A DNA stretch of 64,000 nucleotides from Legionellales bacterium (GCA_047404175.1 JBDOIW010000040.1:21255-85254); one strand, 5' to 3'. Shown: positions 9,519 through 35,602, counted from the first letter of the stretch. Translations and numbers: made by a program. Notes: a model not told the origin generated them from the sequence alone.

Positions 9519-9782
9519 GTTGAGACTAGACATCATAACAACCATTTTTAGTTTCTTACTCACCATTTGATGGCATTAACACCTGGTCTTTATGACTCAT
9601 AAGCACAGGATTAATGGAAATCTATTAGGAAGTGTGCTAAGATATACAGGTTAGGAGCTATATTGAGCTCCAGCCCTAATTACCTATGGTTTATGGCGCA
9701 TCCATCTCAAACTAGAGTAAAAAACAAACTCTGACTTCATTGATGACCATAACAATAACATTCTGATAAGGAAATAATAACC
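9519..9782 (+). promoter_or_regulatory. rne promoter and long 5' leader (candidate autoregulatory UTR)
   Basis: This 264-nt non-coding gap lies upstream of rne and contains a GGAGCT-ATATTG-AGCTCC hairpin. E. coli rne has a long structured leader used for autoregulation. Confidence 0.4.
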
Positions 9783-12314
9783 ATGTCATTTACAACTATC
9801 CAAAAGCCATCAAAGGCTATATTAATCGATGCTGTCAATAGCAACGAACTCCGTGTTGCCATTATCGACAACACACAGAAGAAGCAACACAATATTCTTA
9901 CCGACTTACATATTGAAGATAAGAAACGTGAGCTATATAAATCAAACATTTACAAAGGCAAAATCTCAAGCATAGAACCCAGCCTCAATGCTGTATTCGT
10001 TTACTACGACGATGGGAAGCGTCATGGCTTTCTTCCGTTCAAGGAAATTGATCGCGCCTACTACCAGGACCAGCTTTCTTCAGTACCTGCAAGTAAAGCA
10101 ACAGCGACAAAAGATGATGCTCAACAAACAACTCAACTAGAACAAGACAAGTCTGATAAACCAGACACTCAGGAAACTTCGCCTGAGAGTCCAGTTGCTC
10201 AAACTGACACGCCTCCAGAAAAAGAACAGACAACTTTTACTGTTGAAGAAGAAAAAAGTCATTCTCATAATCCTAGCAATGAAACGATTGCAAATGCACT
10301 TAAGATCGGCCAGGAAATCCTCGTTCAGGTAGTCAAGGAAGAACGGGGCACCAAAGGTGCTGCTCTAACGACAATGATTAGTCTTGCTGGCTCCTATCTT
10401 GTTCTTATGCCTAATAGTCCTTCTGTAAAGGGTATCTCTCGCCGAATAGAGGGCTCTGCTCGCGATGAAGCAAAAGATATCACTTCTAGCCTAAAGTGCC
10501 CAGAAAACATGGGGTTTATTATCAGAACTGCAGGCATCAATCAAAACATAGCGCATCTTCAGTGGGATCTCGATGTACTTGTTAACTTATGGAGCGCTAT
10601 TCACACCGCATCAGGCGAGCATGATGCCCCTGTGCTCATGCATCAAGAAAGTGATGTGATAAGCTGTGCGGTACGCGACCACCTTCGTCAGGACATCACT
10701 GATCTTGTTGTTAACGACCAGATCTCCTTTGAAAAGATCAAAACCTATATCCACCAAATAAAACCGCAATTCGTTGATCACGTCCATCTCTATGATCATA
10801 GCACTCCCCTTTTTGCACACTTTGGAATTGAGAATCAAATCGAACAAGCCCACCAACGTGAAGTACGTTTGCCTTCAGGTGGTGCCATCATCATAGACCC
10901 AACAGAAGCCCTTATTTCTGTGGATGTCAACTCGGCTCGTGCTAAAGGCTCTGACATTGAAGATACAGCATTTAGTACCAACCTTGAAGCCGCTGAAGAG
11001 CTAGCCAAACAGCTACGTCTTCGCGATATTGGTGGCCTTATTGTTATTGATTTTATTGACATGAATCACAATAAGCACCAACGCGAGGTTGAATCACACC
11101 TTAAAAAATGTCTTCAAGAAGATCGAGCCCGTATTAGACTTGGCAAAATATCTTCATTTGGCTTACTAGAGATGTCACGACAACGTCTACGGTCATCACT
11201 TGGTGAAGTAACAAAAATTGAGTGCCCAAGATGTGGGGGCCAAGGTATGATTCAAAGTGTTGAGTCGCTATCACTAAGCTTAATAAGGCGTATTCGTGAA
11301 GACGTTATGAATGAGCAACTTTTGCAGCTGCAGATTCATGTTCCTCTTGAAGTTTGCGCACAGCTCATGAATCATCACCGTAACCAACTCAGTGACATTG
11401 AAACATGTGGTAAAACAAGTATTATCGTCGTGCCTAATCCTAACTATCAGTCACCCCAATTTAAGATTAAAAAAATACGCTTTTCCGATAAAGCTACTAA
11501 GGCCGCTCAGATGGAAAGTAAAAGCTATCAACTTATTGAGCCTCATCGCAATCAATATCAACATGAAAAGTCCCATAACAATCAGACTAAGAACCAACGT
11601 AGCGAACCTGTAGTGAATGCACAGTCTATCACTGAAGCACATCAAAGCCCAAAACCTCAAATTAGCTTAGTGAAGCGCCTCTGGGATGGTATTTTTAACA
11701 ACAAGGCTATCAAAGTTAAATCTGAAGTTGAAATGGATCTTGTCGATGATAATATTGGCAATCTTAAAACATCATCTCAGCAAAACAAATCACCCAAGAA
11801 ACCAAGGCAACAGCAAGCTGGACATCGAGATCAAAAACGAGACCGCCACCCTTCCCGCAATAGAAAGCGCAATAGTGGTAATACAAGTCATAATCATTCT
11901 GCTCAAAAAAGCAACCAAAATACAAGTCATCACAACAAAGTGAGTAAGTCTAAAGATTCTATGAAAGTAGAAACAGCAAACATCGAAAGTCAACCATCCA
12001 CTCATACTAGCCCCTCTACACAAAAGCCAGCAACAAAAACTAAAAAAGAAAACGATAACAGAGGCTTAGATAAAAAGGCAATCAAGTCTAAAAACCAATC
12101 TGAGAGTAAAGGCGGAATTAAAAAAACAAAACAAGAACAGGCTGAGCCATCAGAAAAAAAAGCTTCGCCGAAACCAGTAAGTAGCATAAAACCAGTAAGT
12201 AGCATAAAATCAGAGAGCCCCACAAGTAACAAGACTAGCGCTAAACCAGCTGAAAAAAAGGCCGTCAAACCAAAGGCTGAAACCACTCAGAAATCCAGTG
12301 ATAAAGAAAAATAA
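9783..12314 (+). CDS. rne: ribonuclease E
   Basis: The N-terminal catalytic domain aligns to E. coli RNase E (ELRVAIID...NIYKGKISSIEPSLNAVFV...HGFLPFKEI; LAGSYLVLMP; DFIDM; Zn-link CPRCGGQG). The C-terminal half is a low-complexity basic scaffold. Confidence 0.93.
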   Translation: MSFTTIQKPSKAILIDAVNSNELRVAIIDNTQKKQHNILTDLHIEDKKRELYKSNIYKGKISSIEPSLNAVFVYYDDGKRHGFLPFKEIDRAYYQDQLSSVPASKATATKDDAQQTTQLEQDKSDKPDTQETSPESPVAQTDTPPEKEQTTFTVEEEKSHSHNPSNETIANALKIGQEILVQVVKEERGTKGAALTTMISLAGSYLVLMPNSPSVKGISRRIEGSARDEAKDITSSLKCPENMGFIIRTAGINQNIAHLQWDLDVLVNLWSAIHTASGEHDAPVLMHQESDVISCAVRDHLRQDITDLVVNDQISFEKIKTYIHQIKPQFVDHVHLYDHSTPLFAHFGIENQIEQAHQREVRLPSGGAIIIDPTEALISVDVNSARAKGSDIEDTAFSTNLEAAEELAKQLRLRDIGGLIVIDFIDMNHNKHQREVESHLKKCLQEDRARIRLGKISSFGLLEMSRQRLRSSLGEVTKIECPRCGGQGMIQSVESLSLSLIRRIREDVMNEQLLQLQIHVPLEVCAQLMNHHRNQLSDIETCGKTSIIVVPNPNYQSPQFKIKKIRFSDKATKAAQMESKSYQLIEPHRNQYQHEKSHNNQTKNQRSEPVVNAQSITEAHQSPKPQISLVKRLWDGIFNNKAIKVKSEVEMDLVDDNIGNLKTSSQQNKSPKKPRQQQAGHRDQKRDRHPSRNRKRNSGNTSHNHSAQKSNQNTSHHNKVSKSKDSMKVETANIESQPSTHTSPSTQKPATKTKKENDNRGLDKKAIKSKNQSESKGGIKKTKQEQAEPSEKKASPKPVSSIKPVSSIKSESPTSNKTSAKPAEKKAVKPKAETTQKSSDKEK

Positions 12315-12459
12315 GCTAGATATGATTAAGGCACTAAACTTCTATAGCTGACTGAGAAATAAACTCAGTCGGCTCAAACATTGTTTCGTTGAATAAATTT
12401 GTCATGTAAAAATAAAATAAACCACTACTATTATCAAAATACGTGATACGAGTAGTTTT

Positions 12460-13314
12460 ATGCATTATCAAGAAATTTATGAGGCAGCAAAATATTATGC
12501 TGACCATAAATGCCTTCATCAACAAGATGGTTTTTACATCAATAACCTCTATGCATCAGCATGCAACTATTTAATGTACAGTGACTTCAACGACCACTAC
12601 TTTACCATTTATTTTCTCGTCGAGGGCATTTACCATGAGTATCATGACCGGCTTATTAAAGAGAATCCTGATAAAATACCACTATTTAAGGGAGCAAGTA
12701 AGACATTACTTAAAGTGTACCACCATGTCACAGATAGCAAAAAAAACATTGAAACAATCGATCAACAACTTCTCATAGCTGTCTGTATTAACATGGAAAG
12801 AGTTAAACACTCTGGCGCACAATTTAGTTCTGCTGAAGTTGGAAATAGTAATCTCAAAGAGTATGAAGAACAGTTAAACATTGTAAAGACAAAACTACCT
12901 ATCATCATCGAGGCAAAATCTGCACTACTTGCTCTCAAACGAATGAATAGATTTCAGATCATTACAGATTACTTAATCGCAAAATTCGATTTAAAATACC
13001 CACCAAGAATTCCACGCCTGGACGATTTCTGTAAGCTTATCCATAGTCTTGATCAAGAGTGCAGCCAAGTGTCATTATCTCGTTATTTCGATCGTATGGA
13101 CACAGCAAAATTTGATAAGGTATCAGTTTACTCTACATGGAACGTGTGTTATTACAAAAACATTCGCGATCAAATCAGCATGCTTCCCGAAGCAACTCTT
13201 GAAAAGCAGTTTACATCATTTAAAAACCAGCTCTATGATCATCATAAAAAGGCAAAAGAAGGATCAAGTGCTGCAACAGTTTACCGTAGCCTTATTGTCA
13301 ACTTGTCATTTTAA
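12460..13314 (+). CDS. hypothetical protein (ORFan, AT-rich)
   Basis: The 284-aa ORF has no recognisable domain and is noticeably AT-richer than its neighbours. Its C-terminus is small-polar-rich with hydrophobic residues near the end. Confidence 0.5.
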   Translation: MHYQEIYEAAKYYADHKCLHQQDGFYINNLYASACNYLMYSDFNDHYFTIYFLVEGIYHEYHDRLIKENPDKIPLFKGASKTLLKVYHHVTDSKKNIETIDQQLLIAVCINMERVKHSGAQFSSAEVGNSNLKEYEEQLNIVKTKLPIIIEAKSALLALKRMNRFQIITDYLIAKFDLKYPPRIPRLDDFCKLIHSLDQECSQVSLSRYFDRMDTAKFDKVSVYSTWNVCYYKNIRDQISMLPEATLEKQFTSFKNQLYDHHKKAKEGSSAATVYRSLIVNLSF

Positions 13315-13316
13315 AT

Positions 13317-13814
13317 TTATTCGTCAACAAGAAATGCTTTTTCAATGATCACTGACTCTGTTGGCACATCCTGATGCCCCATTCGACTACCAGTTGATAC
13401 CTTCTCAATAGCATCAATAGTTTCCATGCCTTCTACGACCTGTCCAAACACACAGTACCCCCAACCCTGAGGTGACTCACTGCTGAAGTTAAGAAAAGCA
13501 TTATCTTTTGTGTTAATAAAAAACTGAGTGCTTGCAGAGTGAGGCATATTCGTTCTTGCCATAGCAAAAGTGCCACGTTTATTTTCACCACCTATGTTTG
13601 CTTCATTGTCGATGCTAGATCTACTTTCAAGATCCTGCATAGATGTATCAAAACCACCAGCCTGCACCATAAAATCCTTAATGACACGGTGGAAAATAGC
13701 GCCATTATAATAGCCTTCTTTCACTAAATTCTTAAAGTTTTCAGTTGTCTTTGGTGTGGCTTCACTTAGCTCGAGAATAAATTTTCCAAAATTAGTTTCA
13801 AATTGTGCTTTCAT
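13317..13814 (-). CDS. ppiB: peptidyl-prolyl cis-trans isomerase (cyclophilin, cytoplasmic)
   Basis: Cyclophilin motifs are present (FHRVIKDFMVQAGG, NKRGTFAMARTN, QFFI). No signal peptide is present. Confidence 0.9.
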   Translation of the reverse strand: MKAQFETNFGKFILELSEATPKTTENFKNLVKEGYYNGAIFHRVIKDFMVQAGGFDTSMQDLESRSSIDNEANIGGENKRGTFAMARTNMPHSASTQFFINTKDNAFLNFSSESPQGWGYCVFGQVVEGMETIDAIEKVSTGSRMGHQDVPTESVIIEKAFLVDE

Positions 13815-22465: not shown

Positions 22466-24379
22466 CTAATTCTTGTCAGCAATTATTACTTGTAACTGCT
22501 TTGTTAATTCATCTATTGTTATGCCGCTTTCCGATTTACCATCTAGTGTTCGGCATGATACTGTATCCGACTCGATCTCTTGATCACCAATAACGATAAG
22601 ATAAGGAATACGAGCCATTACATGCTCTCTAATTTTATACCCAATCTTCTCATTTCTCAAGTCTTTATGTGCCCTTATGCCTTGTTTTTTTAGCTTTTCT
22701 TGTATTTCGGTCACTTTTATATTGTGTTTTTCTGATATTCCTAGCACCATGGCCTGCTTAGGGGCCAACCAAAGTGGAAGCCCCTGATCAAACTGCTCAA
22801 GCAAAATGCCAATAAATCGCTCAAGTGAACCTAGTGTTGCACGGTGAATCATCACGGGAACCTCTTGCTCACTCTTTTCATTAATAAAGCTAGCGTCAAG
22901 ACGGCCTGGCATGGCAAAATCTAGCTGCACTGTACCGCACTGCCAACTTCGCCCCAAGCAATCAGTAATATGGAACTCGATCTTAGGACCATAAAAAGCA
23001 CCTTCTCCTTCTTGAAGAACCCAATCCATGGAACGATCATCAAGCACTTTGGCTAGTAAGCTTTCAGCAAGATCCCATAAAGATTCATCACCCACCCGCT
23101 GCTCAGGCCTGGTTGATAATGCCACCTTCACTTTCGTGAAACCAAAATCTTGATAAATCTCTTGAAGCTGCTCGATAAAACCTGACACCTCAGATTCTAT
23201 TTGCGACTCACGACAAAAAATATGACCATCATCTTGAACAAAATTCCTCAGGCGCATCAAGCCATGCAAGGCACCAGAAGGCTCGTTACGGTGGCAAGAA
23301 CCATATTCTGCCATACGAATAGGTAGCTCTCGATAACTTCTAAGGCGATGCTTAAAAATCTCCACATGACACGGACAATTCATGGGCTTGAGCACCATAC
23401 GCTTATCACTCTCTTCATCCTGAACCATAAACATATTGTCAGAAAATTTACCGATATGACCAGAAGCTTCCCACAAAGAACTATCCACCAACTGAGGCGT
23501 CGCAACTAAATGATAGCCATTCTGCTCAAATTTTTCTGTCAGATAGTGCTGAACTTGCCTGTACAAAACTTGGCCGTCTTCATGCCAAAATACCATACCA
23601 GGAGCCAAATCACTGATATGAGCCAAATCCATCTTTTGCATCATACGGCGATGATCACGCTTTTCAGCTTCAGACAACCTTTTAAGATAGGCATTAAGGT
23701 CTTCTTCAGATAACCATGCGGTGCCATAAATACGTTGCAGCATGGGATTATTGGAATCCCCTCGCCAATAGGCACCGGATACTTTAAGTAACTTGAACCA
23801 CTTAAGCAAACCAGTTCGAGGCACATGAGGGCCTCGACAAAGGTCAATAAAATCTCCCTGTGTATAAAAACTTAAGGTCTCACCTTTTGGGATATCGCGA
23901 ATAATTTCTTGCTTGTAGGGCTCTCCACTTTTTTCATAGAACGCTAAAGCCTCTTGTTGTGGCATGACAGATCGTGCAACAGGATGATTTTCTTTCACGA
24001 CTCGCTTCATCTCACGCTCGATTTTTTCTAAATCCTGCTCTGTAATAGACTGGCTGCAATCGATATCATAATAAAAACCATCTTCAATCACAGGCCCAAT
24101 GGTAATCTGACAATCAGGGAAAATTCTTTTGATAGCTTGGGCCATCAAATGCGCACACGAATGACGAACCACCTCAAGCGCTCGCTCATCGCCCAATGTC
24201 ACAAGCTCAAGACGAGCATCATTTTGAATCAGATAATCATGATCTCTCGCCTCACTATCAACCAAGGCATAAACAAGCTTCTTTGCAAGTGAAGAACTGA
24301 TGTCTTTGGCAATGGATAGAGGAGTTTGAGGCTCATCATAGCTAAGCGTATTGCCATCAGGAAGCGTTATGACCGGCAT
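22466..24379 (-). CDS. thrS: threonine--tRNA ligase
   Basis: It starts at MPVITLPDG, identical to the E. coli ThrRS N-terminus. TGS, editing and class II catalytic motifs are present. The ORF-track 5' extension runs into tRNA-Val and is rejected. Confidence 0.93.
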   Translation of the reverse strand: MPVITLPDGNTLSYDEPQTPLSIAKDISSSLAKKLVYALVDSEARDHDYLIQNDARLELVTLGDERALEVVRHSCAHLMAQAIKRIFPDCQITIGPVIEDGFYYDIDCSQSITEQDLEKIEREMKRVVKENHPVARSVMPQQEALAFYEKSGEPYKQEIIRDIPKGETLSFYTQGDFIDLCRGPHVPRTGLLKWFKLLKVSGAYWRGDSNNPMLQRIYGTAWLSEEDLNAYLKRLSEAEKRDHRRMMQKMDLAHISDLAPGMVFWHEDGQVLYRQVQHYLTEKFEQNGYHLVATPQLVDSSLWEASGHIGKFSDNMFMVQDEESDKRMVLKPMNCPCHVEIFKHRLRSYRELPIRMAEYGSCHRNEPSGALHGLMRLRNFVQDDGHIFCRESQIESEVSGFIEQLQEIYQDFGFTKVKVALSTRPEQRVGDESLWDLAESLLAKVLDDRSMDWVLQEGEGAFYGPKIEFHITDCLGRSWQCGTVQLDFAMPGRLDASFINEKSEQEVPVMIHRATLGSLERFIGILLEQFDQGLPLWLAPKQAMVLGISEKHNIKVTEIQEKLKKQGIRAHKDLRNEKIGYKIREHVMARIPYLIVIGDQEIESDTVSCRTLDGKSESGITIDELTKQLQVIIADKN

Positions 24380-24394
24380 AGAATTCCTTGAAAA

Positions 24395-24469
24395 TGGTAG
24401 GCACGAGTGGAATCGAACCACCGACCACCACCATGTCAAGGTGGTGCTCTACCACTGAGCTACGCGCCT
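24395..24469 (-). tRNA. tRNA-Val (anticodon GAC)
   Basis: The 75-nt cloverleaf has D-arm TAGCTCAGTGGTAGAGCA, anticodon stem CCACC/GGTGG, loop TTGACAT and T-arm GGTTCGATTCC. Its 3' end lies 15 nt before the thrS ATG. Confidence 0.88.
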
Positions 24470-24582
24470 GTATTCATTAAGCCACTGATTCTAACACGCC
24501 CAACACCCAAGTGCAATCAAAACGTCACTCAAAAGCACTAAAACCAGCTTCAAAAATCACCTAAAAAACAAGGACCAGCATT

Positions 24583-25674
24583 GTGATTGAGCAAAAAATC
24601 ACCTATAATAACGCTACTTTTTCTTGTACACTAATTACTATGTCTAAACAGAGCATTGCCATCCCATGCAAGACGGTAGGCCCCATACACATTCGTACCG
24701 ACCAAGAGGATAATGCATTACACTTTCATGCACCTCTGGCTACCTTCGAAAAACCTGTGTGGTTTGCTGTTGGTCGTGGGGCCCGGCTGAGTCGCCAGGG
24801 CAACCCAATCCATACCTACTGCCTTGGTGAGCAGATGACACGATCGATTGTTTTCACCTCTGCCAGTGCTGCAGGTGCTATCAGTCTCAAAGCAAGCATT
24901 CAGTCTCGCTTCACTGATCTCTGCCAAGTAGTTGCACAAACCTCAAACTATGCAACACTCACAAAGCTCGACTTCACGCACTTAGGTAACAAGCTGTATT
25001 GTCGATGCTACTACACCACTGGTGATGCCGCAGGACACAATATGGTCACGAAAGCTTCAGATGCCATAGGTCAGCACATTGCCTCTTGGCCTGGCGACCA
25101 TCGCTACCTATCAGTTTCTGCTAACTTATGTACTGACAAGAAAGTATCATCTATCAATCCCCATGAAGGTCGCGGTAAAAAAATGCTTGCTGAAATAGTA
25201 CTAGATAGATCAGCGATCGAAAAGGTTCTTCATACAACGCCTGAAGCACTCGTTGAGCTGCACATTACCAAAAATCTGGCTGGATCCATATTGGCAGGCA
25301 GCCTCCACTCAGCCAATGCACATGTTGCCAATACATTACTGGCCTTTTATCTTGCAACAGGGCAGGACGCTGCTAATATCGTTGAAGGATCTCAAGCCAT
25401 GGTGCACACAGAAATGCAGGGGAATGACCAACTTTATTTTAGTGTGACACTTCCTTCTCTAGTGATAGGAAGTGTAGGCCAAGGCAAAAACGATGGTGAT
25501 ACCTACCAGAATATTCAAGCGATAGCACATAAGCACCCTGTCAACAGTCAAACACTTGCACATGTTTGTGCTGCAGCAGTACTTTGTAGTGAGATCTCTC
25601 TCCTAGCGGCACAAACCAAACCTGGTGAATTAGTCAAGAGTCATATGATATTAGAAAGAAGGACCCAAACATGA
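24583..25674 (+). CDS. mvaA: HMG-CoA reductase homologue (class I-like, short form)
   Basis: It has TTGDAAGHNMVTKASDAIG (compare DAMGMNM), IAIPCKTVGPIHI (compare PIPVGVAGPL) and VIGSVGQGKND (compare GTVGGGT). The start is GTG, and an in-frame stop 18 nt upstream caps the length at about 369 aa. Confidence 0.65.
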   Translation: MIEQKITYNNATFSCTLITMSKQSIAIPCKTVGPIHIRTDQEDNALHFHAPLATFEKPVWFAVGRGARLSRQGNPIHTYCLGEQMTRSIVFTSASAAGAISLKASIQSRFTDLCQVVAQTSNYATLTKLDFTHLGNKLYCRCYYTTGDAAGHNMVTKASDAIGQHIASWPGDHRYLSVSANLCTDKKVSSINPHEGRGKKMLAEIVLDRSAIEKVLHTTPEALVELHITKNLAGSILAGSLHSANAHVANTLLAFYLATGQDAANIVEGSQAMVHTEMQGNDQLYFSVTLPSLVIGSVGQGKNDGDTYQNIQAIAHKHPVNSQTLAHVCAAAVLCSEISLLAAQTKPGELVKSHMILERRTQT

Positions 25675-26906
25675 GCAGTATCGGTATTGAAGGCCTAAGT
25701 ATTTACTCTCCTGGACAACAATTTCTACTAACAACATTGAGCGAATTACGAGGTCATGCCTCTGGCTATTTTACTAAAAGCTCTGGACATATCAGCATGG
25801 CCATCCCTATGATGCATGAAGATGTTGTAACCATGGCAGCCGAGGCATGCTCAAAGCTTCCCTGCAGCCTTGATGATGTGACGCTTGTGCTCTTTGCAAC
25901 CGAGTCCTCAAAGGACCAATCCAAAGCTCAAGGTATCTACTTACATCGACTGCTCCAACTACGACCAGACTGTCGTGTTATTGAATTAAAACAAGCCTGC
26001 TATTCTGCAACAGCAGGCATACAATTAGCCATCGCCCACGTGATGCGCCACCCCAAGGAAAAAGTGCTTGTTGTGGCTTCTGACATTGCTTTTTACGAAC
26101 CCTACACAGTTGCAGAAGGGTCACAAGGAGCCGGGGCCACGGCTATTTTAATAAGTCAAAATGCAAAAATTGCCACATTGAGTGACCACGCAGGCTTTGT
26201 CACAGAAGACCACATGGACTTTTGGCGCCCTAACCACCTACCCTATCCCCGTGTTGATGGTCGTCTATCTTGCGACTTATATATTCGTCTTCTTCATCAG
26301 TGTTGGCAGCAATATAGTCAAAAATCTGGCCTGGACTACCATGATCACCAAGGCTTTTGCTTTCACACACCACTTAAGAAACTTGCGCTCAATGCTCACC
26401 GAAAACTTCTCCTGAAACAAAAAATCACCCCAGATGAAACAATGCAGCAACGCATAGAAACTAGTTTTTTATACGCAACCCACATCGGTAATACTTATAG
26501 TGCTTCCTTAATGATGTCTTTTGCATCCTTACTTAAACACTGTCACGACGATCTTGCTGGACAACGAATTGCTATGTACAGCTATGGCTCCGGCTGTGTT
26601 GCCGAGTGCTTTCACTTACAACCTATTACTGGCTACCAGCAACATCTCTCTCATTTACCTAGCATAGAAGCCCTTGAGCAGCGACCCACACTCTCACAAG
26701 ATAGCTACTTAAGCCTTATCGCTCATAACAAAAGCAACGACTACTCATCTGCCCATTCACTCAAATCAGAAGCTCACATTAGTGAGAAACAAGAAAATGG
26801 TGCCGTTTCAAGCTTCACAGCGCAGGACAAAACACAAGCACCCACCAGCACCTTTTCATTGCAGGGTCACGTCAATGACGCCCCTCAATACGAGCAGCAA
26901 TCATGA
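25671..26906 (+). CDS. mvaS: HMG-CoA synthase
   Basis: It has the ATESSKDQSKA...LKQACYSATAGIQLA active-site Cys region of HMGS. Its start overlaps the mvaA stop. Confidence 0.88.
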   Translation: MSSIGIEGLSIYSPGQQFLLTTLSELRGHASGYFTKSSGHISMAIPMMHEDVVTMAAEACSKLPCSLDDVTLVLFATESSKDQSKAQGIYLHRLLQLRPDCRVIELKQACYSATAGIQLAIAHVMRHPKEKVLVVASDIAFYEPYTVAEGSQGAGATAILISQNAKIATLSDHAGFVTEDHMDFWRPNHLPYPRVDGRLSCDLYIRLLHQCWQQYSQKSGLDYHDHQGFCFHTPLKKLALNAHRKLLLKQKITPDETMQQRIETSFLYATHIGNTYSASLMMSFASLLKHCHDDLAGQRIAMYSYGSGCVAECFHLQPITGYQQHLSHLPSIEALEQRPTLSQDSYLSLIAHNKSNDYSSAHSLKSEAHISEKQENGAVSSFTAQDKTQAPTSTFSLQGHVNDAPQYEQQS

Positions 26907-27808
26907 CAACAGTCTCATCTAGCCCAGGTAAACTTATCCTTGCGGGCGAGCATACTGTGCTATGTGGCGCTCAGGCCATTGCTGTTGCAATTCAAGAATA
27001 TACGTCTATTACACTTTTGAATTGTTCTGAGACAAAACTATCCATTCCTCCCTTGGGCATTACCAAGACGCCCCTTAATCAACTAGTCACCCCTCATCTC
27101 GCCACCATCAAGCATGCGATTAGCTCTCTCATCGATATGACTCCAGGCCAAGTAAATCTTGATATAACCATTGATACAAGTATCCCAATGGGGGCAGGCA
27201 TGGGCTCCTCCGCCTCCGTGTTTAGCGCGCTTACAAAAGCATGGCAGCATCACTTTATGCTTGAATTTGATATCATTCCTATTGTGCAGCATTTTGAACA
27301 GATTGCCCATCATCAAGCAAGCCAAGTCGATGCTCATACAGTGATTCATGGAGGAGCCTGGACTTTCCCCCCTGCACAGCAAGCTAATCCTATTCATTGC
27401 GAACTCACCGGCTGGTATTGGCTGAACACAGGCCGTCCGCAGTCTAGTACTGCTGAATGTGTGAAGCATACACTTCCCTTGCTTAAAGCTCATCCTGAGT
27501 GGACTCAGCTCAGTGATAAAGCAGCCCAAGATCTTTGTCAGGGTTTGCAAGACAATACGCCTGATTTGATTCATGAAAGCCTTCAGACCCTTCATCAGAA
27601 TCTTGTGCGTCTTGGCGTTGTGCCTACCTCTATTCAGGCACAAATTGAATCACTCAGATCACAAGGCATAAGTGCAAAAATAAGTGGAGCTGGCACACTT
27701 GTTGGTGATCAAGCTGGCATACTTTTACTTTACTCACCCAATGTTAAGCCAGATCTTGATGGTGTCAAACCACTTGTTTTATCAAAAAAAGGGGTGCATC
27801 TATGTTAA
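26903..27808 (+). CDS. mvk: mevalonate kinase (GHMP family)
   Basis: It has GKLILAGEHTVLCG and the GHMP motif PMGAGMGSSASV. Confidence 0.8.
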   Translation: MTTVSSSPGKLILAGEHTVLCGAQAIAVAIQEYTSITLLNCSETKLSIPPLGITKTPLNQLVTPHLATIKHAISSLIDMTPGQVNLDITIDTSIPMGAGMGSSASVFSALTKAWQHHFMLEFDIIPIVQHFEQIAHHQASQVDAHTVIHGGAWTFPPAQQANPIHCELTGWYWLNTGRPQSSTAECVKHTLPLLKAHPEWTQLSDKAAQDLCQGLQDNTPDLIHESLQTLHQNLVRLGVVPTSIQAQIESLRSQGISAKISGAGTLVGDQAGILLLYSPNVKPDLDGVKPLVLSKKGVHLC

Positions 27809-28704
27809 CAGTGAGTGCACCTGGATCTCTTATGATTGCCGGTGAACATGCCGTACTTGAAGGAGAAAAAGCCATAGTGATGGCCATTGATCACCGACTT
27901 ACTGTCAAGGTTAAAGAAGCCAAAGATAATAAAATAAGCATTGAATCACTACTGGGCACACGCCACTATACCTTGCCTCTCAAAAATATGAATCGTAGTG
28001 ATTGGCAGGATAGAATTCTTTATCACTTTAAAGACCAGATTGACCATGGCCTAGACATTGAAATTGAATCTTCGATTAACTCAGAACTGGGATTAGGTTC
28101 TTCAGCGGCGCTTATCACGGCTCTTTTCTATGCACTTAATCTAGTCACCCAACAAGCTATTTCATCCTATCACCATCACTGGCAAGAGTGCCTTGCTTTT
28201 CTTAGGCAGTATCAACCACAAGCCTCAGGCTCTGATCTTGCTGCTAGTCATTTTGGCGGCATACTAGAGCTTGATCCTAAGCAAGCATCAATCAATAGTT
28301 TTCGAACAAATGCCAAGTGGCTTATTGCTTATACTGGCTACAAAACCAAAACGCACGCAGTCATTGAACAAGTTCGTCAACACTATGATCCCACTCTTTT
28401 TAATCTGATTGGAGCCACCACTACTCAGCTGAAAGCTGCCCTGGTAGAATCTGACTTATCCACTGCAGGTGAACTTATGAATAAGCTTTATCAGTATCAA
28501 CAAAGACTCCACACAAACTGCAAGCATTCAGACACGCTCTGGGATCTGATGAGATCAAACTGTTTTGGTGCCAAACTTTCAGGCTCTGGATTGGGCGACT
28601 GCATGATTGGTCTCCTCAAGACCTCGGACATCCCAGATCAACTTGGGCCATACTCGACAATCGATTGCAGGCCAGATCAGCAAGGACTACTTTGCCATGA
28701 CTGA
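27802..28704 (+). CDS. pmk: second GHMP kinase, probable phosphomevalonate kinase
   Basis: It has SAPGSLMIAGEHAVLEG and LGLGSSAALITA. It lies between the mevalonate kinase and the decarboxylase genes. The MK versus PMK assignment for the two kinases is inferred. Confidence 0.6.
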   Translation: MLTVSAPGSLMIAGEHAVLEGEKAIVMAIDHRLTVKVKEAKDNKISIESLLGTRHYTLPLKNMNRSDWQDRILYHFKDQIDHGLDIEIESSINSELGLGSSAALITALFYALNLVTQQAISSYHHHWQECLAFLRQYQPQASGSDLAASHFGGILELDPKQASINSFRTNAKWLIAYTGYKTKTHAVIEQVRQHYDPTLFNLIGATTTQLKAALVESDLSTAGELMNKLYQYQQRLHTNCKHSDTLWDLMRSNCFGAKLSGSGLGDCMIGLLKTSDIPDQLGPYSTIDCRPDQQGLLCHD

Positions 28705-29692
28705 CCACTATGACCAGCTCAAAGCTAGGATTACATCGACAACACCTTTAGCAAGTGCCACTGCCTTTGCTCCTAGCAACATCGCGCTGTGCAAGTATTG
28801 GGGCAAGCGTGATGTATCTCTTAACTTACCACTGACAGATTCACTTTCCATTAGCCTAGGTCACCTAGGTGCTACGACAACTGTCTCGATCAATACCCAT
28901 CAAGATATCTATACTCTAAATGGTCTTCAACAACCTACAAATAGTAGCTTTTACCGTCGTTTGCATGTATTTCTTAATCACTTCCGAACAAAGCAAACGC
29001 CTTATTTTAGCGTCAAGAGTGAGCTCAATATTCCTTACGCTGCTGGCCTTGCCTCCTCTGCCTGTGGCTTTGCAGCCATCACTGAGGCACTTAACAAGTT
29101 ATTGCAACTTGAGCTCGACAAAAAATCACTTTCCCAAATCAGCCGACTAGGTAGTGGCAGTGCTGCTCGATCACACTGGCAGGGCTTAGTCCACTGGCAT
29201 AGTGGACAAGCTAATGATGGCAGCGATTGCTTTGCCACAGCCATGCCGAACATACTCCCTCACATGCGAATTGGCATAATTTTAACGGAACAATCGAGCA
29301 AGCTTGTAAGCTCCCGTCAAGCCATGCAGCAGTGCTTCACATCGGAAAGCACAAAACAAGCATGGCAATCATTGACCAACACAACCCTCCAACGTTTACA
29401 AAAAGCGATTGATGAGATGGATTGGCCCACTGTTGGACAGTGCACACAATCCCATGCTCAAGCGATGCACCAACTTATTCAAGAGCATTGTGGCGCTATC
29501 TTTGATAACTCAGAGAGCATCGCTATCAAAAAAAAGATTGAGTCACTGCAACAAGATGGTGAAAGAGTTTTCTGGACTCAAGATGCTGGGCCACAAATCA
29601 AACTTTTATTCAAACAGGAAAACGAGCAATCACTCCTTAAAATCTTTCCTGATATCCTTATTATTAACCCCTGGGAGCACAATCATGCCTGA
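28697..29692 (+). CDS. mvaD: diphosphomevalonate decarboxylase
   Basis: The true start is the internal MTDHYDQ. APSNIALCKYWGKRD matches the MDD signature. An ATGA overlap joins it to the upstream gene. Confidence 0.88.
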   Translation: MTDHYDQLKARITSTTPLASATAFAPSNIALCKYWGKRDVSLNLPLTDSLSISLGHLGATTTVSINTHQDIYTLNGLQQPTNSSFYRRLHVFLNHFRTKQTPYFSVKSELNIPYAAGLASSACGFAAITEALNKLLQLELDKKSLSQISRLGSGSAARSHWQGLVHWHSGQANDGSDCFATAMPNILPHMRIGIILTEQSSKLVSSRQAMQQCFTSESTKQAWQSLTNTTLQRLQKAIDEMDWPTVGQCTQSHAQAMHQLIQEHCGAIFDNSESIAIKKKIESLQQDGERVFWTQDAGPQIKLLFKQENEQSLLKIFPDILIINPWEHNHA

Positions 29693-30221
29693 TCATTACC
29701 TAACCCTTGTTGATGATGAAGATAATGCTCTAGGTTATGCCCCCAAATACCTTACCCACCAATTAGGACTACGTCACCGTGCTTTTTCTATATTTTTATT
29801 TGACCAAGATAGACCTGACCAGCTCTTACTTCAACAACGTGCTTCGAGCAAGTACCATTGTCCAGAGTTATGGTCCAACACCTGCTGCTCACATCCTTCT
29901 CCTGGTGAGTCTATCACCCATGCATGCAAAAGACGCTTACAGCAAGAGCTCCATATAGAATGTGACCACTATGAAAAAGCCGGTATTCTACTCTACGAGG
30001 CGCAACTTGATAATCAGCTTATTGAACATGAATTTGATCACATCCGCGTTGGTTTTATACAGCATCAAAGCTTTTCACCCAATCATGAGGAGGTGATGCA
30101 GCTTCGCTGGGAAAGCGTCAGCACTATTCAAGACTCGATTGAAGAAAACCCTGAGCAGTTTACCCCTTGGTTTCCTAATGCGTTTTCAATAGCCTGTCGG
30201 TATTTAGGCTTAGCAATTTAA
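29685..30221 (+). CDS. idi: isopentenyl-diphosphate delta-isomerase, type 1 (Nudix)
   Basis: The true start is the internal MPDHYLTLVDDED. It has the NTCCSHP hallmark plus conserved Glu/His residues. Its start overlaps the mvaD stop. Confidence 0.88.
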   Translation: MPDHYLTLVDDEDNALGYAPKYLTHQLGLRHRAFSIFLFDQDRPDQLLLQQRASSKYHCPELWSNTCCSHPSPGESITHACKRRLQQELHIECDHYEKAGILLYEAQLDNQLIEHEFDHIRVGFIQHQSFSPNHEEVMQLRWESVSTIQDSIEENPEQFTPWFPNAFSIACRYLGLAI

Positions 30222-30296: not shown

Positions 30297-31361
30297 TCAA
30301 GCGATACTTTGTGCGCCCAATTCCATTGCATGAGGATTTTCAATAAGCTCTTCGTGATCTTCATCTCTAGGCTTTTGCTCTCTGCAAAAAAAACTGGGCC
30401 AAGACAGACAAGAGTTTCTTGGTGGACAAAGCTGGCTGCCCATTTCTATCATCACGGCATGCTCCTCTCTTCTTTCTGATACATAGTTTAAAGCATATTT
30501 TATTGCATAATTCGGCACATTATCTTGCAATATATATACTACATTGCTCTTCAGCAGCTCTTGAGTAACTATACGGGATAGTTCAACCCCCTCTTCCAGC
30601 TTTTCAATCTGATCGCCAGAAAGTATGATGCCATAATGCTCCTCTACAATTGTTTTCAACTGCATTAAGTAGGGAGTCTCTTCGTCATAACCACTAGGGG
30701 TGTTGGAGACTGTCGTGGATAGTTTTACTATTTCTTGCTTCACATTATCATGATTATGAGGAAAAATCATAGTGATAAATTGCCCATGAAGTGACTCATC
30801 CGCAAGATGTATCCATAAAAGACTATCTTCTCTATGTCGATTTGAAGAGCCATCTCCAACCACATAGATATTTTTAACACTTTGGTCTCTGTAGAAATAG
30901 TCAGTTAACCTAGTAAGTATACCACTATTAGTAGAATAAGGAGACAACTCACCCTCTTCATCTATCATCTTAGTGAGCGCATGTGAGCAGTTCAAAACAG
31001 CTACAGGACTTCCGTCAAGCCCTTTCACGACTTTAAAGGGACATGATAATGCTGCTTGATTGTAGTTATAAAGTGAATTCTCAAAATCAATTAGCTCTTT
31101 ACTAGGCCCACAAACAAATGCTAGCACCCCGCCAAAGCAGCAAGATAAAACACAAAATAATGGAAAGGCAACAGCCCAATAAGGCCATGGATAATCAGAG
31201 AAAAGAGAAATTGATACGGCAACATAACTAGCCCAAGGTAAGAAACAAACCACTATAGACAAAAGATCACGTATCAATTGAGTATTGGCTACTACCACTA
31301 GCGAAACATGACCATCACCTATTTTTTCGATGAAGCCATCTATTTTTGAAAAAATATTCAT
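30297..31361 (-). CDS. hypothetical membrane protein (2 N-terminal TM segments + ~250-aa soluble domain)
   Basis: The 354-aa ORF has hydrophobic stretches (LVVVANTQLIRDLLSIVVCFLPW and AVAFPLFCVLSCCFGGVLAFVC). It shows no domain similarity. Confidence 0.5.
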   Translation of the reverse strand: MNIFSKIDGFIEKIGDGHVSLVVVANTQLIRDLLSIVVCFLPWASYVAVSISLFSDYPWPYWAVAFPLFCVLSCCFGGVLAFVCGPSKELIDFENSLYNYNQAALSCPFKVVKGLDGSPVAVLNCSHALTKMIDEEGELSPYSTNSGILTRLTDYFYRDQSVKNIYVVGDGSSNRHREDSLLWIHLADESLHGQFITMIFPHNHDNVKQEIVKLSTTVSNTPSGYDEETPYLMQLKTIVEEHYGIILSGDQIEKLEEGVELSRIVTQELLKSNVVYILQDNVPNYAIKYALNYVSERREEHAVMIEMGSQLCPPRNSCLSWPSFFCREQKPRDEDHEELIENPHAMELGAQSIA

Positions 31362-31562
31362 TATGACTCAACATTTATTTTTATAGCATGCAATTCTACA
31401 ACTTTAACGCAAATCAATCAAGTCACTCATCATCATAATGACCTCATTATCTCCCAGGAAAGCCCACGCACTCACAAACATCGTTGCTTGACGTGTCTTT
31501 TCAATAGCCACTGAGTATTTTAGGATTTTTTTATTCCCATCTCAGTCTTATCCCCTTAATGC

Positions 31563-33968
<2,406 letters not shown>

Positions 33969-33979
33969 ATCATTTTCTC

Positions 33980-35602
33980 CTAGTGTGATTGATGCTCAAG
34001 TGCTGCTGTAATAAAGGCGATAAACAAGGGATGAGGATTAAGCGGTTTCGAAAGAAACTCTGGATGAAACTGACAAGCAACAAACCATGGGTGTTCATTG
34101 ATTTCAATCATTTCAACTAAGCCCTCTTGACTAGAACGCCCAGACAATACTAATCCTGCACTCTCTAGCTGATCTGTAAACGCAGGGTTGACTTCATAAC
34201 GATGTCGGTGACGTTCTTCTATCTCGCTTGATTGATAAATTTCAGCTGCAAGTGAATCGGCTGCCAGCTGGCAGCGTTGAGCACCTAAACGCATAGTACC
34301 ACCTTTATTTTCATCCGCTGCTTGCACAAGCGTGACACCTTTGTCATCTTGCCAAGACTGAACGAGCGTAATAACCGCTTGATCAGTTTTTGAAAATTCA
34401 GCACTATTGGCATTAGTGAGCTCACACACGTGACGCGCATATTCAACCACAGCAAGTTGCATACCTAGGCAAATGCCAAAAAATGGAATACGATTTATTC
34501 TTGCATAGTGAATCGCTGCAATTTTCCCCTCAACACCACGCTCACCAAAACCTCCAGGGACTAAGATAGCGTCAACATGAGCGCTCTTTAGAAACTGCAC
34601 TGGATCATTTTCTGCATCAACAAAGACGAGTTCTAGCCGAGCGCGCTGTGAGATAGCAGCATGCTTTAGTGCCTCATTAAGTGACTTATAGGCTTCTTTA
34701 AGCTCAGTGTACTTGCCAATAATGGCCACACTCACCTGATGTTCATGTGATTGTGCGCGTTCGATAAGTTGATACCAGGCCTCAAGTGCAGCATCTTGGC
34801 TAGAGACCTTGAGCTTATCAAGAATAAGCTTGTCTACGGCTTGCTCGTATAGCAAAATAGGCAACTCATAGATATTATCGATATCAGGCAGTGAAATAAC
34901 CGCCTCAGAGCCAACGTTTGTAAACAATGATATTTTATTTTTAGAAGTTTCATCGAGTACGTGCTTTGTTCGACAAAAAATAAGATCTGGCTGAATTCCC
35001 AATGACCGTAACTCTTTCACTGAGTGCTGTGTAGGTTTGGTTTTAATCTCTCCACTCACGTCCATAAAAGGCACCAAGGTAAGATGGAGATAAAGAGAGT
35101 TATCCTGACCTACTTCACAACGAAGTTGACGAATAGCTTCAAGAAAAGGTAAGGACTCAATATCACCTACTGTGCCGCCTATTTCAACAAGTAAAAAATC
35201 CAATTCACTGGTGAGTGCACGTTTGATTTTGCTGATGATCATGTCTGTGATGTGAGGTATAACCTGGATTGTTTCCCCTAAATAGTCACCCTTGCGTTCT
35301 TTTTGAATAACTTCAGCATAAATTTGACCTGTCGTAAAATTATTATCTGCTGTCATGGTGGATGAAACATAGCGCTCATAATGACCAAGATCTAGATCCG
35401 TTTCTGCCCCGTCATGAGTCACAAACACTTCACCATGTTGAAATGGGCTCATAGTACCTGGATCTACGTTAATATAGGGATCTAGTTTCATCATAGAAAC
35501 ACTGAAACCGCGCGACTCAATAACCGCACCCAATGCTGCTGCTGTAAGACCCTTACCTAAGGATGAAACCACTCCACCAGTAATAAACAAAATTTTTGTC
35601 AT
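33980..35602 (-). CDS. pyrG: CTP synthase
   Basis: It has [18 protein letters not shown] and a glutamine amidotransferase C-domain (GICLGMQ). Confidence 0.95.

Follow-up and report, generated by a model that had tools for sequence, protein, structure and literature searches.

Which route supplies isoprenoid precursors to a bacterium that carries a compact set of mevalonate (MVA) pathway genes, and how long has it carried them? This question is raised by a 64,000-nucleotide stretch of DNA from a Legionellales bacterium (GCA_047404175.1 JBDOIW010000040.1:21255-85254), here called the window, in which six genes of this pathway occupy positions 24583-30221 beside a tRNA-Val gene. Our analysis indicates that they form a functional classical MVA operon, mvaA-mvaS-mvk-(pmk-like)-mvaD-idi, that has long been resident in its lineage and is most likely the sole route to isoprenoid precursors, a reading that we regard as probable. 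ORF (open reading frame) calling identified six gap-free co-directional ORFs on the plus strand:

24583/24640-25674, plus strand: mvaA, short class I 3-hydroxy-3-methylglutaryl coenzyme A (HMG-CoA) reductase, 344 amino acids from ATG 24640
25671-26906, plus strand: mvaS, HMG-CoA synthase, 411 amino acids
26903-27808, plus strand: probable mvk, GHMP kinase 1, best model TIGR00549
27802-28704, plus strand: pmk-like gene, GHMP kinase 2, a paralog resembling mevalonate kinase (MVK) with a putative role as phosphomevalonate kinase (PMK)
28697-29692, plus strand: mvaD, diphosphomevalonate decarboxylase, 331 amino acids
29685-30221, plus strand: idi, type 1 (Nudix) isopentenyl-diphosphate isomerase (IDI), 178 amino acids

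The stop and start codons of consecutive genes overlap along the whole operon, in the order ATGA (4 nt), ATGA (4 nt), ATGTTAA (7 nt), ATGACTGA (8 nt) and ATGCCTGA (8 nt). Because each stop codon overlaps the following start codon, translation of the six genes is probably coupled. The initial annotation of this DNA had described six overlapping MVA genes, and the ORF coordinates, the 4-8-nt overlaps and the family matches agree with that description, with profile searches placing the ORFs in the HMG-CoA reductase, HMG-CoA synthase, GHMP kinase, diphosphomevalonate decarboxylase and IDI families. The encoded enzymes would condense acetoacetyl-CoA and acetyl-CoA to HMG-CoA, which would be converted to mevalonate, mevalonate 5-phosphate, mevalonate 5-diphosphate and finally isopentenyl diphosphate (IPP) and dimethylallyl diphosphate (DMAPP). 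The further claim of a full set from acetoacetyl-CoA to IPP and DMAPP holds for the genes from HMG-CoA synthase to IDI, whereas the pmk label, for a gene that misses every PMK cut-off, is a tentative one.

The reductase matches PF00368 over profile positions 41-368 of 368 (E=3e-75, 253.9 bits, cut-off 27). It lacks the N-terminal ~70-90 residues found in eukaryotic and archaeal catalytic domains and, as this truncation is common to all relatives of ~345 amino acids, it represents a subfamily trait and not damage. Short bacterial class I HMG-CoA reductases of ~345-355 amino acids possess neither a membrane domain nor an N-domain, and the enzyme of Streptomyces sp. CL190, at ~353 amino acids, is reportedly of this short class I-like form. 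When the window protein is aligned to the human reductase (1DQ8), the motifs LATFE, CTDKK, GQDAA and LVKSHM fall on E559, K691, D767 and H866, which we take to be the catalytic residues. All four positions (Glu, Lys, Asp and His) are invariant in the ortholog alignment. Loss of the catalytic glutamate from the truncated enzyme was considered and rejected, as the 1DQ8 alignment puts E559 on the retained LATFE motif.

The mvaS product narrowly exceeds the cut-off of TIGR01835 (361.7 versus 360.35 bits, model positions 1-370 of 382) and also matches PF01154 and PF08540 in Pfam searches. The protein ends in a low-complexity C-terminal tail of ~40 amino acids. Synthase and first GHMP kinase are separate in the window, where their genes overlap by ATGA, and are fused into a single protein of ~740-756 amino acids in the related loci L084, L086, L089, L102 and L158; the tail could be a former or future linker for such a fusion. 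The mvaD product reaches 210.8 bits with the classical diphosphomevalonate decarboxylase equivalog TIGR01240 (cut-off 171.35), matches PF22700 and PF18376, and fails the models for phosphomevalonate decarboxylase (NF040704, 79.9 versus 475 bits) and bisphosphomevalonate decarboxylase (NF040847, 46.5 versus 560 bits). The isomerase passes both NF002995 (149.7 bits, cut-off 127) and TIGR02150 (121.3 bits, cut-off 105.8). Its alignment to E. coli Idi retains the equivalents of H25, H32, C67, H69, E87, E114, E116 and W161, among which are what we take to be the catalytic cysteine and glutamate and the metal ligands.

For GHMP kinase 1, all ten matches in the PDB are mevalonate kinases, the family profile yields 146 bits with the MVK of M. 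jannaschii, and the motif PGK..GEH is conserved with P8, K10, G15 and E16 invariant among orthologs. Judged from these matches, GHMP kinase 1 is probably the MVK of the operon. A 186-amino-acid antisense ORF at 27083-27643 within its gene is almost certainly spurious. The families of kinase 1 and kinase 2 are clear paralogs (hhalign probability 99.9%, 23% identity), and the two genes are kept side by side, with kinase 2 between mvk and mvaD, in ~50 loci. Kinase 2 carries a near-invariant PGS in motif 1 instead of PGK, and it alone shows partial matches to PMK models. We infer that kinase 2 acts as the PMK because mvaD is of the classical diphosphate type, because the gene lies between mvk and mvaD and because the gene order is like that of Paracoccus. 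Likeness to solved structures failed to separate MVK from PMK, as both families resemble MVK. The mvk and pmk labels of the initial annotation are consequently not established as calls made from sequence, given that both kinases best match mevalonate kinase. The enzyme that must serve as PMK across the clade is an MVK paralog, and its orthologs are publicly named 'mevalonate kinase', 'GHMP kinase' or 'mevalonate kinase family protein'. With such pipeline naming, and with no curated PMK model reached, a PMK will appear to be absent from automated pathway reconstructions of this clade.

All six genes retain most of the positions expected of working enzymes. Among columns at least 95% conserved in up to 82 orthologs, mvaA keeps 99 of 115, mvaS 66 of 74, GHMP kinase 1 31 of 40, GHMP kinase 2 32 of 34, mvaD 60 of 70 and idi 33 of 36 (78-94%). 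Almost every departure is also present in the nearest relative of the operon, a locus (L082) from the EMO BON European coastal marine metagenome ERR13954273; departures common to both are therefore fixed lineage changes and not decay. Judged by this conservation, the six genes appear to be constrained, working genes of a fast-evolving lineage and not relics.

Upstream of the operon lie the tRNA-Val gene and two promoter-like sites:

24395-24469, minus strand: tRNA-Val gene (anticodon GAC), identified by ARAGORN and Rfam RF00005 (69.5 bits), 5' end toward the operon
24488-24516, minus strand: putative tRNA-Val promoter, consensus match TTGCAC-17-TAGAAT, -10 element ending 19 nt ahead of the 5' end of the tRNA gene
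24581-24609, plus strand: putative operon promoter of sigma-70 type, TTGTGA-17-TATAAT, top-scoring site of the scan with 10 of 12 consensus matches

The reductase had been proposed to start at GTG 24583, which is preceded by AAGGA 9 nt upstream. This start was rejected. The GTG falls within the -35 element of the promoter-like site at 24581-24609, whose -35 TTG and CCTATAAT -10 element are kept at equal spacing in L082 and a further locus (L083), and in L082 the frame upstream of the aligned reductase ATG is closed by stop codons, giving a reductase of 344 amino acids. For these two reasons ATG 24640, located 57 nt downstream of the GTG and conserved in L082, is most likely the true start. The operon would then probably be transcribed from the conserved site at 24581-24609. 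On the opposite strand, the -35 element of the putative tRNA-Val promoter lies within a block conserved with L082. This ~20-nt spacer block (24509-24529, AAGTGCAATCAAAACGTCACT) overlaps that -35 element and possibly takes part in regulation of the divergent operon. Overall, the tRNA-operon spacer looks like two back-to-back promoters, both recognized as consensus matches with a predicted function.

The distance between the divergent tRNA-Val gene and the operon had been given as 113 nt; this is correct to GTG 24583, and to the likelier ATG 24640 the distance is 170 nt, equal to the spacer in L082. The L082 locus displays the same order as the window, with tRNA-Val, the 170-nt spacer, the six genes and ftsB-eno-kdsA-pyrG, and the first 57 nt of its contig match bases 24412-24468 of the window exactly. 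The operon enzymes of the two loci are 54-69% identical and their enolases 81% identical. Identity to all other sampled clusters is only 26-51%, about as low as for the housekeeping proteins of the same genome. The GC content of the operon is 0.449 compared with 0.421 for 32 housekeeping genes (Mann-Whitney p=0.0001), GC at third codon positions is 0.391 compared with 0.355, and the codon-usage distance of the operon to housekeeping genes is 0.92 versus 0.87 for housekeeping genes among themselves. The comparison with neighboring genes suggested by the initial annotation thus yields at most a slight difference, and the near-host third-position GC and codon usage mean that the operon is ameliorated and any transfer old. 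The operon has therefore evolved with its lineage for a long time, and if it was transferred, the event is old. We claim no donor lineage; the cassette and host trees are quick neighbor-joining trees of tblastn-derived fragments that are fit for grouping and not for rooting or donor inference. A mechanically called thrS ORF at 22466-24439 runs 60 nt into the tRNA-Val gene, and its real start is ATG 24379 (MPVITLPDG...), which gives an exact database protein match.

The other side of the operon bears on whether it is the only route. Two features follow idi:

30297-31361, minus strand: orphan ORF of 354 amino acids between idi and ftsB, no Pfam or NCBIfam match, singleton cluster
31563-35602, minus strand: pyrG-kdsA-eno-ftsB, identified by Pfam, with ftsB followed by the 354-amino-acid ORF and the converging mevalonate operon

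Only ~100 nt separate idi and ftsB in L082 and the orphan ORF is absent there, so that the ORF represents a later insertion. Just upstream of the 354-amino-acid ORF, positions 31498-31520 repeat the 3' end of idi (30183-30205) imperfectly, with 19 of 23 nt in agreement; this repeat could be the footprint of an insertion or a product of chance. In E. coli, two genes of the methylerythritol phosphate (MEP) pathway follow ftsB (ftsB-ispD-ispF-truD-surE-pcm-nlpD) and another lies in the order pyrH-frr-dxr-ispU-cdsA-rseP-bamA. Searches of the whole 64-kb window with the E. coli MEP enzymes, IspD and IspF among them, found no match. Since ftsB is not followed by ispD as it usually is, the operon is most likely the only isoprenoid-precursor route of the cell.

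Comparison with 86 further loci carrying the short reductase places this arrangement in a broader context. Most sampled loci have the order reductase, ~340-amino-acid gene, synthase, kinase 1, kinase 2 and decarboxylase, which is the Paracoccus order. The second-position gene belongs to the FMN_dh family, as checked in locus L129 only, and presumably encodes a type 2 IDI. A cassette with a terminal type 1 isomerase is found in ten distinct loci, nine of which adjoin ftsB/surE or cdsA/rseP/bamA, within one to two genes of the usual ispD/ispF or dxr site, with the MEP gene absent there. Loci L086/87, L089 and L158 show the order eno-cassette-ftsB-surE with ispD and ispF absent; nlpD comes next in L089 and L158, and L089 additionally has rpoS. 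The cassette in L102 abuts surE and rpoS. Locus L107 possesses the order pyrH-frr-uppS-cdsA-X-cassette-rseP-bamA, in which uppS begins at the frr stop codon, so that the dxr of the E. coli order is missing; L125 and L159 share this neighborhood. The only cassette with a terminal type 1 IDI located elsewhere is that of L084/85. A shorter cassette cut by a contig end (L131) also lies beside bamA and stands outside the ten.

A rough neighbor-joining tree shows three separate groups, namely the ftsB/surE cassettes, the rseP cassettes and the window together with L082, which suggests about three events and not nine. The recurrent placement at MEP-gene sites is therefore suggestive, with few independent events behind it. 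That the cassette with terminal type 1 IDI is non-randomly placed, and that the pathway was replaced, or its replacement fixed, in situ, is a tentative proposal that we consider possible but short of probable. According to this proposal, the cassette would insert beside an MEP gene and that gene would then be lost, rendering the cassette indispensable. Homologous recombination in the conserved housekeeping genes on either side could subsequently carry a linked 'cassette plus deletion' from one gammaproteobacterium to another in a single step. Our literature search found no description of cassette placement at MEP-gene sites, and the placement beside ftsB/surE or cdsA/rseP/bamA may be new. If a genome-wide survey confirms it, this would be a concrete example of an essential pathway swapped for a non-homologous one. 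Synteny anchored on thrS places MVA genes less than 10 kb from thrS in 1 of 80 loci (L014, a Neptuniibacter metagenome-assembled genome), in a different arrangement; linkage to thrS is therefore not general.

Several points weigh against a working, classical pathway that serves as the sole route. No thiolase gene was found in the operon or the 64-kb window, so that 'from acetoacetyl-CoA' is the right wording for where the encoded pathway begins. Neither an intrinsic terminator 3' of idi nor a clear Shine-Dalgarno sequence before ATG 24640 was found, and the proposed promoter use and translational coupling are consensus-level predictions. The reductase, which is of the class I/NADPH type, obtains 237.5 bits with TIGR00533, below the cut-off of 441.8, in a match that begins at model position 69. 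GHMP kinases 1 and 2 score 129 and 126.3 bits, respectively, with the MVK model TIGR00549 (cut-off 163). No operon gene reaches the cut-off of a PMK model, kinase 2 obtaining 65.3 bits with the Gram-positive type (TIGR01220, cut-off 165.7) and 26.6 bits with the archaeal type (NF040957, cut-off 500). Its family profile gives 189 bits with the archaeal (M. mazei) MVK 6MDE versus 54 bits with the solved PMKs 1K47 and 3GON (S. pneumoniae PMK). In addition, only 64 kb of the genome, from a contig of at least 101 kb, are in view. The kinase results would be in keeping with a non-classical step in which kinase 2, instead of being a PMK, would also phosphorylate mevalonate or act on a different substrate altogether: both kinases and their family profiles best match MVK structures, the PMK models are missed by a wide margin, orthologs of kinase 2 are publicly annotated as 'mevalonate kinase', and a near-invariant serine occupies the motif 1 position where MVKs carry lysine. 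Against this stands the decarboxylase, which is of the classical diphosphate type, so that a diphosphate substrate is expected, and no isopentenyl phosphate kinase is present in the cluster. Furthermore, the two kinase families are conserved adjacent to each other in ~50 loci, the Paracoccus operon with equal order is a complete functional pathway (PMC7264872), and Hoshino and Gaucher treat both enzymes as the MVK and phosphomevalonate kinase, of seemingly separate origin, of the gammaproteobacteria/Verrucomicrobia/Lentisphaerae clade (PMC6107057). We consider a non-classical step quite unlikely and prefer to regard kinase 2 as the PMK. The restriction to 64 kb in turn speaks for dual pathways, with a full MEP pathway elsewhere in the genome and the operon as an auxiliary or condition-specific IPP supply, for example for a specialized isoprenoid; for six of the seven MEP genes the usual neighborhood lies outside the window, so that their absence from it carries little weight. 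The seventh, ispD, is however missing at its canonical position downstream of ftsB, and related cassette loci likewise lack ispD/ispF or dxr in otherwise intact canonical neighborhoods. In the published gammaproteobacterial cases MVA stands in for MEP (PMC1635747, PMC9803151), and no terpene synthase or other specialized isoprenoid gene adjoins the operon. Dual pathways are accordingly an unlikely arrangement in our estimation, and a sole MVA route is the preferred one.

The two remaining alternatives concern the history of the operon and are far less probable still. If the operon were a decaying relic whose genes are intact by chance and whose function is lost, the low identity of its proteins (26-51% to every relative but one) and the three proteins under equivalog cut-offs could be read as decay. 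Yet 5.6 kb without frameshifts or internal stops, the catalytic residues retained in the reductase and isomerase alignments, and the 78-94% of highly conserved columns kept, with departures common to L082, argue against it. Housekeeping proteins of the same genome are equally divergent, so the divergence of the operon is a property of the lineage, and a relic can be set aside almost completely. A recent genomic island, acquired by site-specific integration at tRNA-Val, would be in keeping with the adjoining tRNA gene, the GC content slightly above that of the neighbors and the orphan ORF at the far end of the operon. Islands usually insert at the 3' end of tRNA genes, however, whereas here the 5' end of tRNA-Val faces the operon and the putative tRNA promoter separates the two. 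Flanking ORFs contain no integrase, transposase or other mobility domain. No repeat of the tRNA end was found, the sole tRNA-related match being a 17-nt imperfect inverted one inside a coding region, and the search for island borders (repeats, a terminator after idi, mobility genes) likewise found none. The codon-usage distance of the operon equals that of host genes, and the same tRNA-operon-ftsB arrangement with its 170-nt spacer is present in a lineage with enzymes only 54-69% identical. A recent island is largely refuted by these observations and very improbable. The tRNA adjacency is instead ancestral, on the 5' side of the tRNA, and not an integration signature, as part of an operon long resident in its lineage.

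Gene clusters of the type to which the operon belongs are already known from gammaproteobacteria, Verrucomicrobia and Lentisphaerae. In 2006 the gammaproteobacterium Thiomicrospira crunogena was reported to have MVA instead of the deoxyxylulose phosphate (DXP)/MEP pathway (PMC1635747), Coxiella burnetii and Legionella pneumophila are described as carrying MVA genes and no MEP genes (PMC9803151), and the MVA pathway genes of C. burnetii are mostly essential (PMC9997736). Hoshino and Gaucher, 2018, count gammaproteobacteria among the main MVA-bearing bacterial groups and describe syntenic transfer, with a minority of members per phylum carrying the pathway (PMC6107057). The literature thus agrees with the initial annotation that MVA operons are a minority in gammaproteobacteria and are attributed to horizontal transfer (PMC6107057, PMC1635747, PMC9803151). 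The mention of some Legionellales in that annotation implies too narrow a range, as homologue searches indicate that the operon type is far more widespread in marine gammaproteobacteria. The reductase search yielded over 5,000 relatives, of which the best 120 have lengths of ~340-380 amino acids throughout; those with names are mostly from marine gammaproteobacteria, including Neptuniibacter, Nitrincola, Thiomicrorhabdus, Cardiobacteriaceae and Osedax symbionts. Neither Legionella nor Coxiella contributes a protein to the best 120 reductase or kinase matches.

With the clusters of gammaproteobacteria, Verrucomicrobia and Lentisphaerae, for example Tcr1717-1734 of Thiomicrospira (Hydrogenovibrio) crunogena XCL-2, the operon shares the enzyme set, in which a class I reductase of ~345 amino acids is combined with two MVK-like kinases and, after them, a decarboxylase of the classical type. 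These clusters are likewise passed on as a syntenic set, and the operon similarly occurs in a gammaproteobacterium otherwise expected to use MEP. In contrast, the window groups with L082 on a long branch of their own, at 26-51% identity to all other sampled clusters, and has type 1 IDI in the last position, whereas most sampled clusters carry the FMN_dh-family gene in the second. In T. crunogena the MVA genes fall into two groups by published locus tags, and in the window they form one operon. The Paracoccus zeaxanthinifaciens operon mvaA-idi-hcs-mvk-pmk-mvd (Humbelin 2002), which can replace MEP in Rhodobacter (PMC7264872), is, compared by its published order, also a single reductase-first operon with the same synthase-mvk-pmk-mvd order; its isomerase is second, while the Nudix-type IDI of the window lies at the 3' end. 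Like L. pneumophila and C. burnetii, the organism is an MVA-bearing gammaproteobacterium with a host-associated flavor (leucine-rich-repeat proteins, orphan ORFs), but neither ThrS identity nor the four-protein tree places it with Legionella or Coxiella. As the operon type, its occurrence in the class and its block transfer are already published, novelty is low, and the only unusual point is that the operon sits where an MEP-pathway gene would normally lie. The locus adds one divergent lineage to the known picture of gammaproteobacterial mevalonate use, which matters for predicting fosmidomycin and statin sensitivity and for metabolic reconstruction of uncultured, possibly host-associated, marine bacteria.

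The host itself belongs to a fast-evolving or deep-branching, poorly sampled lineage. Chromosomal genes in the window include fabD-fabH-plsX, rne, bipA, pheST-infC-thrS, pyrG-kdsA-eno-ftsB, mfd, recJ, nadE and miaB-phoH-ybeY-corC. Named matches among the best 120 for BipA are all gammaproteobacterial; three contigs reach 78-80% identity and the rest lie at 71-73% across many orders. A gammaproteobacterial host is a reasonable assignment from these protein matches. ThrS shows at most 57% identity to GTDB species representatives, among the matches listed, and 52-53% to Legionella/Coxiella, which is below the best match. The concatenate of ThrS, InfC, PheS and PheT is ~45% identical to every sampled gamma- and betaproteobacterium, and in a neighbor-joining tree of these four proteins (57 loci) the window lies on a very long branch, equidistant and not joining Legionella or Coxiella. 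By ThrS identity and this tree, the host does not demonstrably fall within Legionellales. Two leucine-rich-repeat proteins of LRR_6, LRR_4 and LRR_8 types (7827-9518 and 54365-55489) and many orphan ORFs of lower GC (mean 0.394) in the window suggest a host-associated lifestyle. The nearest BipA relative (L169) encodes a 1038-amino-acid leucine-rich-repeat and ankyrin protein at 4096-7212. Directly upstream of the MVA cassette in L102, a metagenome contig, positions 8736-9914 carry a gene of the Legionella major-outer-membrane-protein family (PF05150, E=1e-49), so that at least the surE-linked form of the cassette occurs in a Legionellales-like organism. In the nearest NCBI relative (L170, GCA_018402195.1, JAGYIW010000017.1; BipA 78% identical), pheT and thrS at 7426-13340 are each called as several fragments, which points to pseudogenes of a reduced genome or to assembly frameshift errors.

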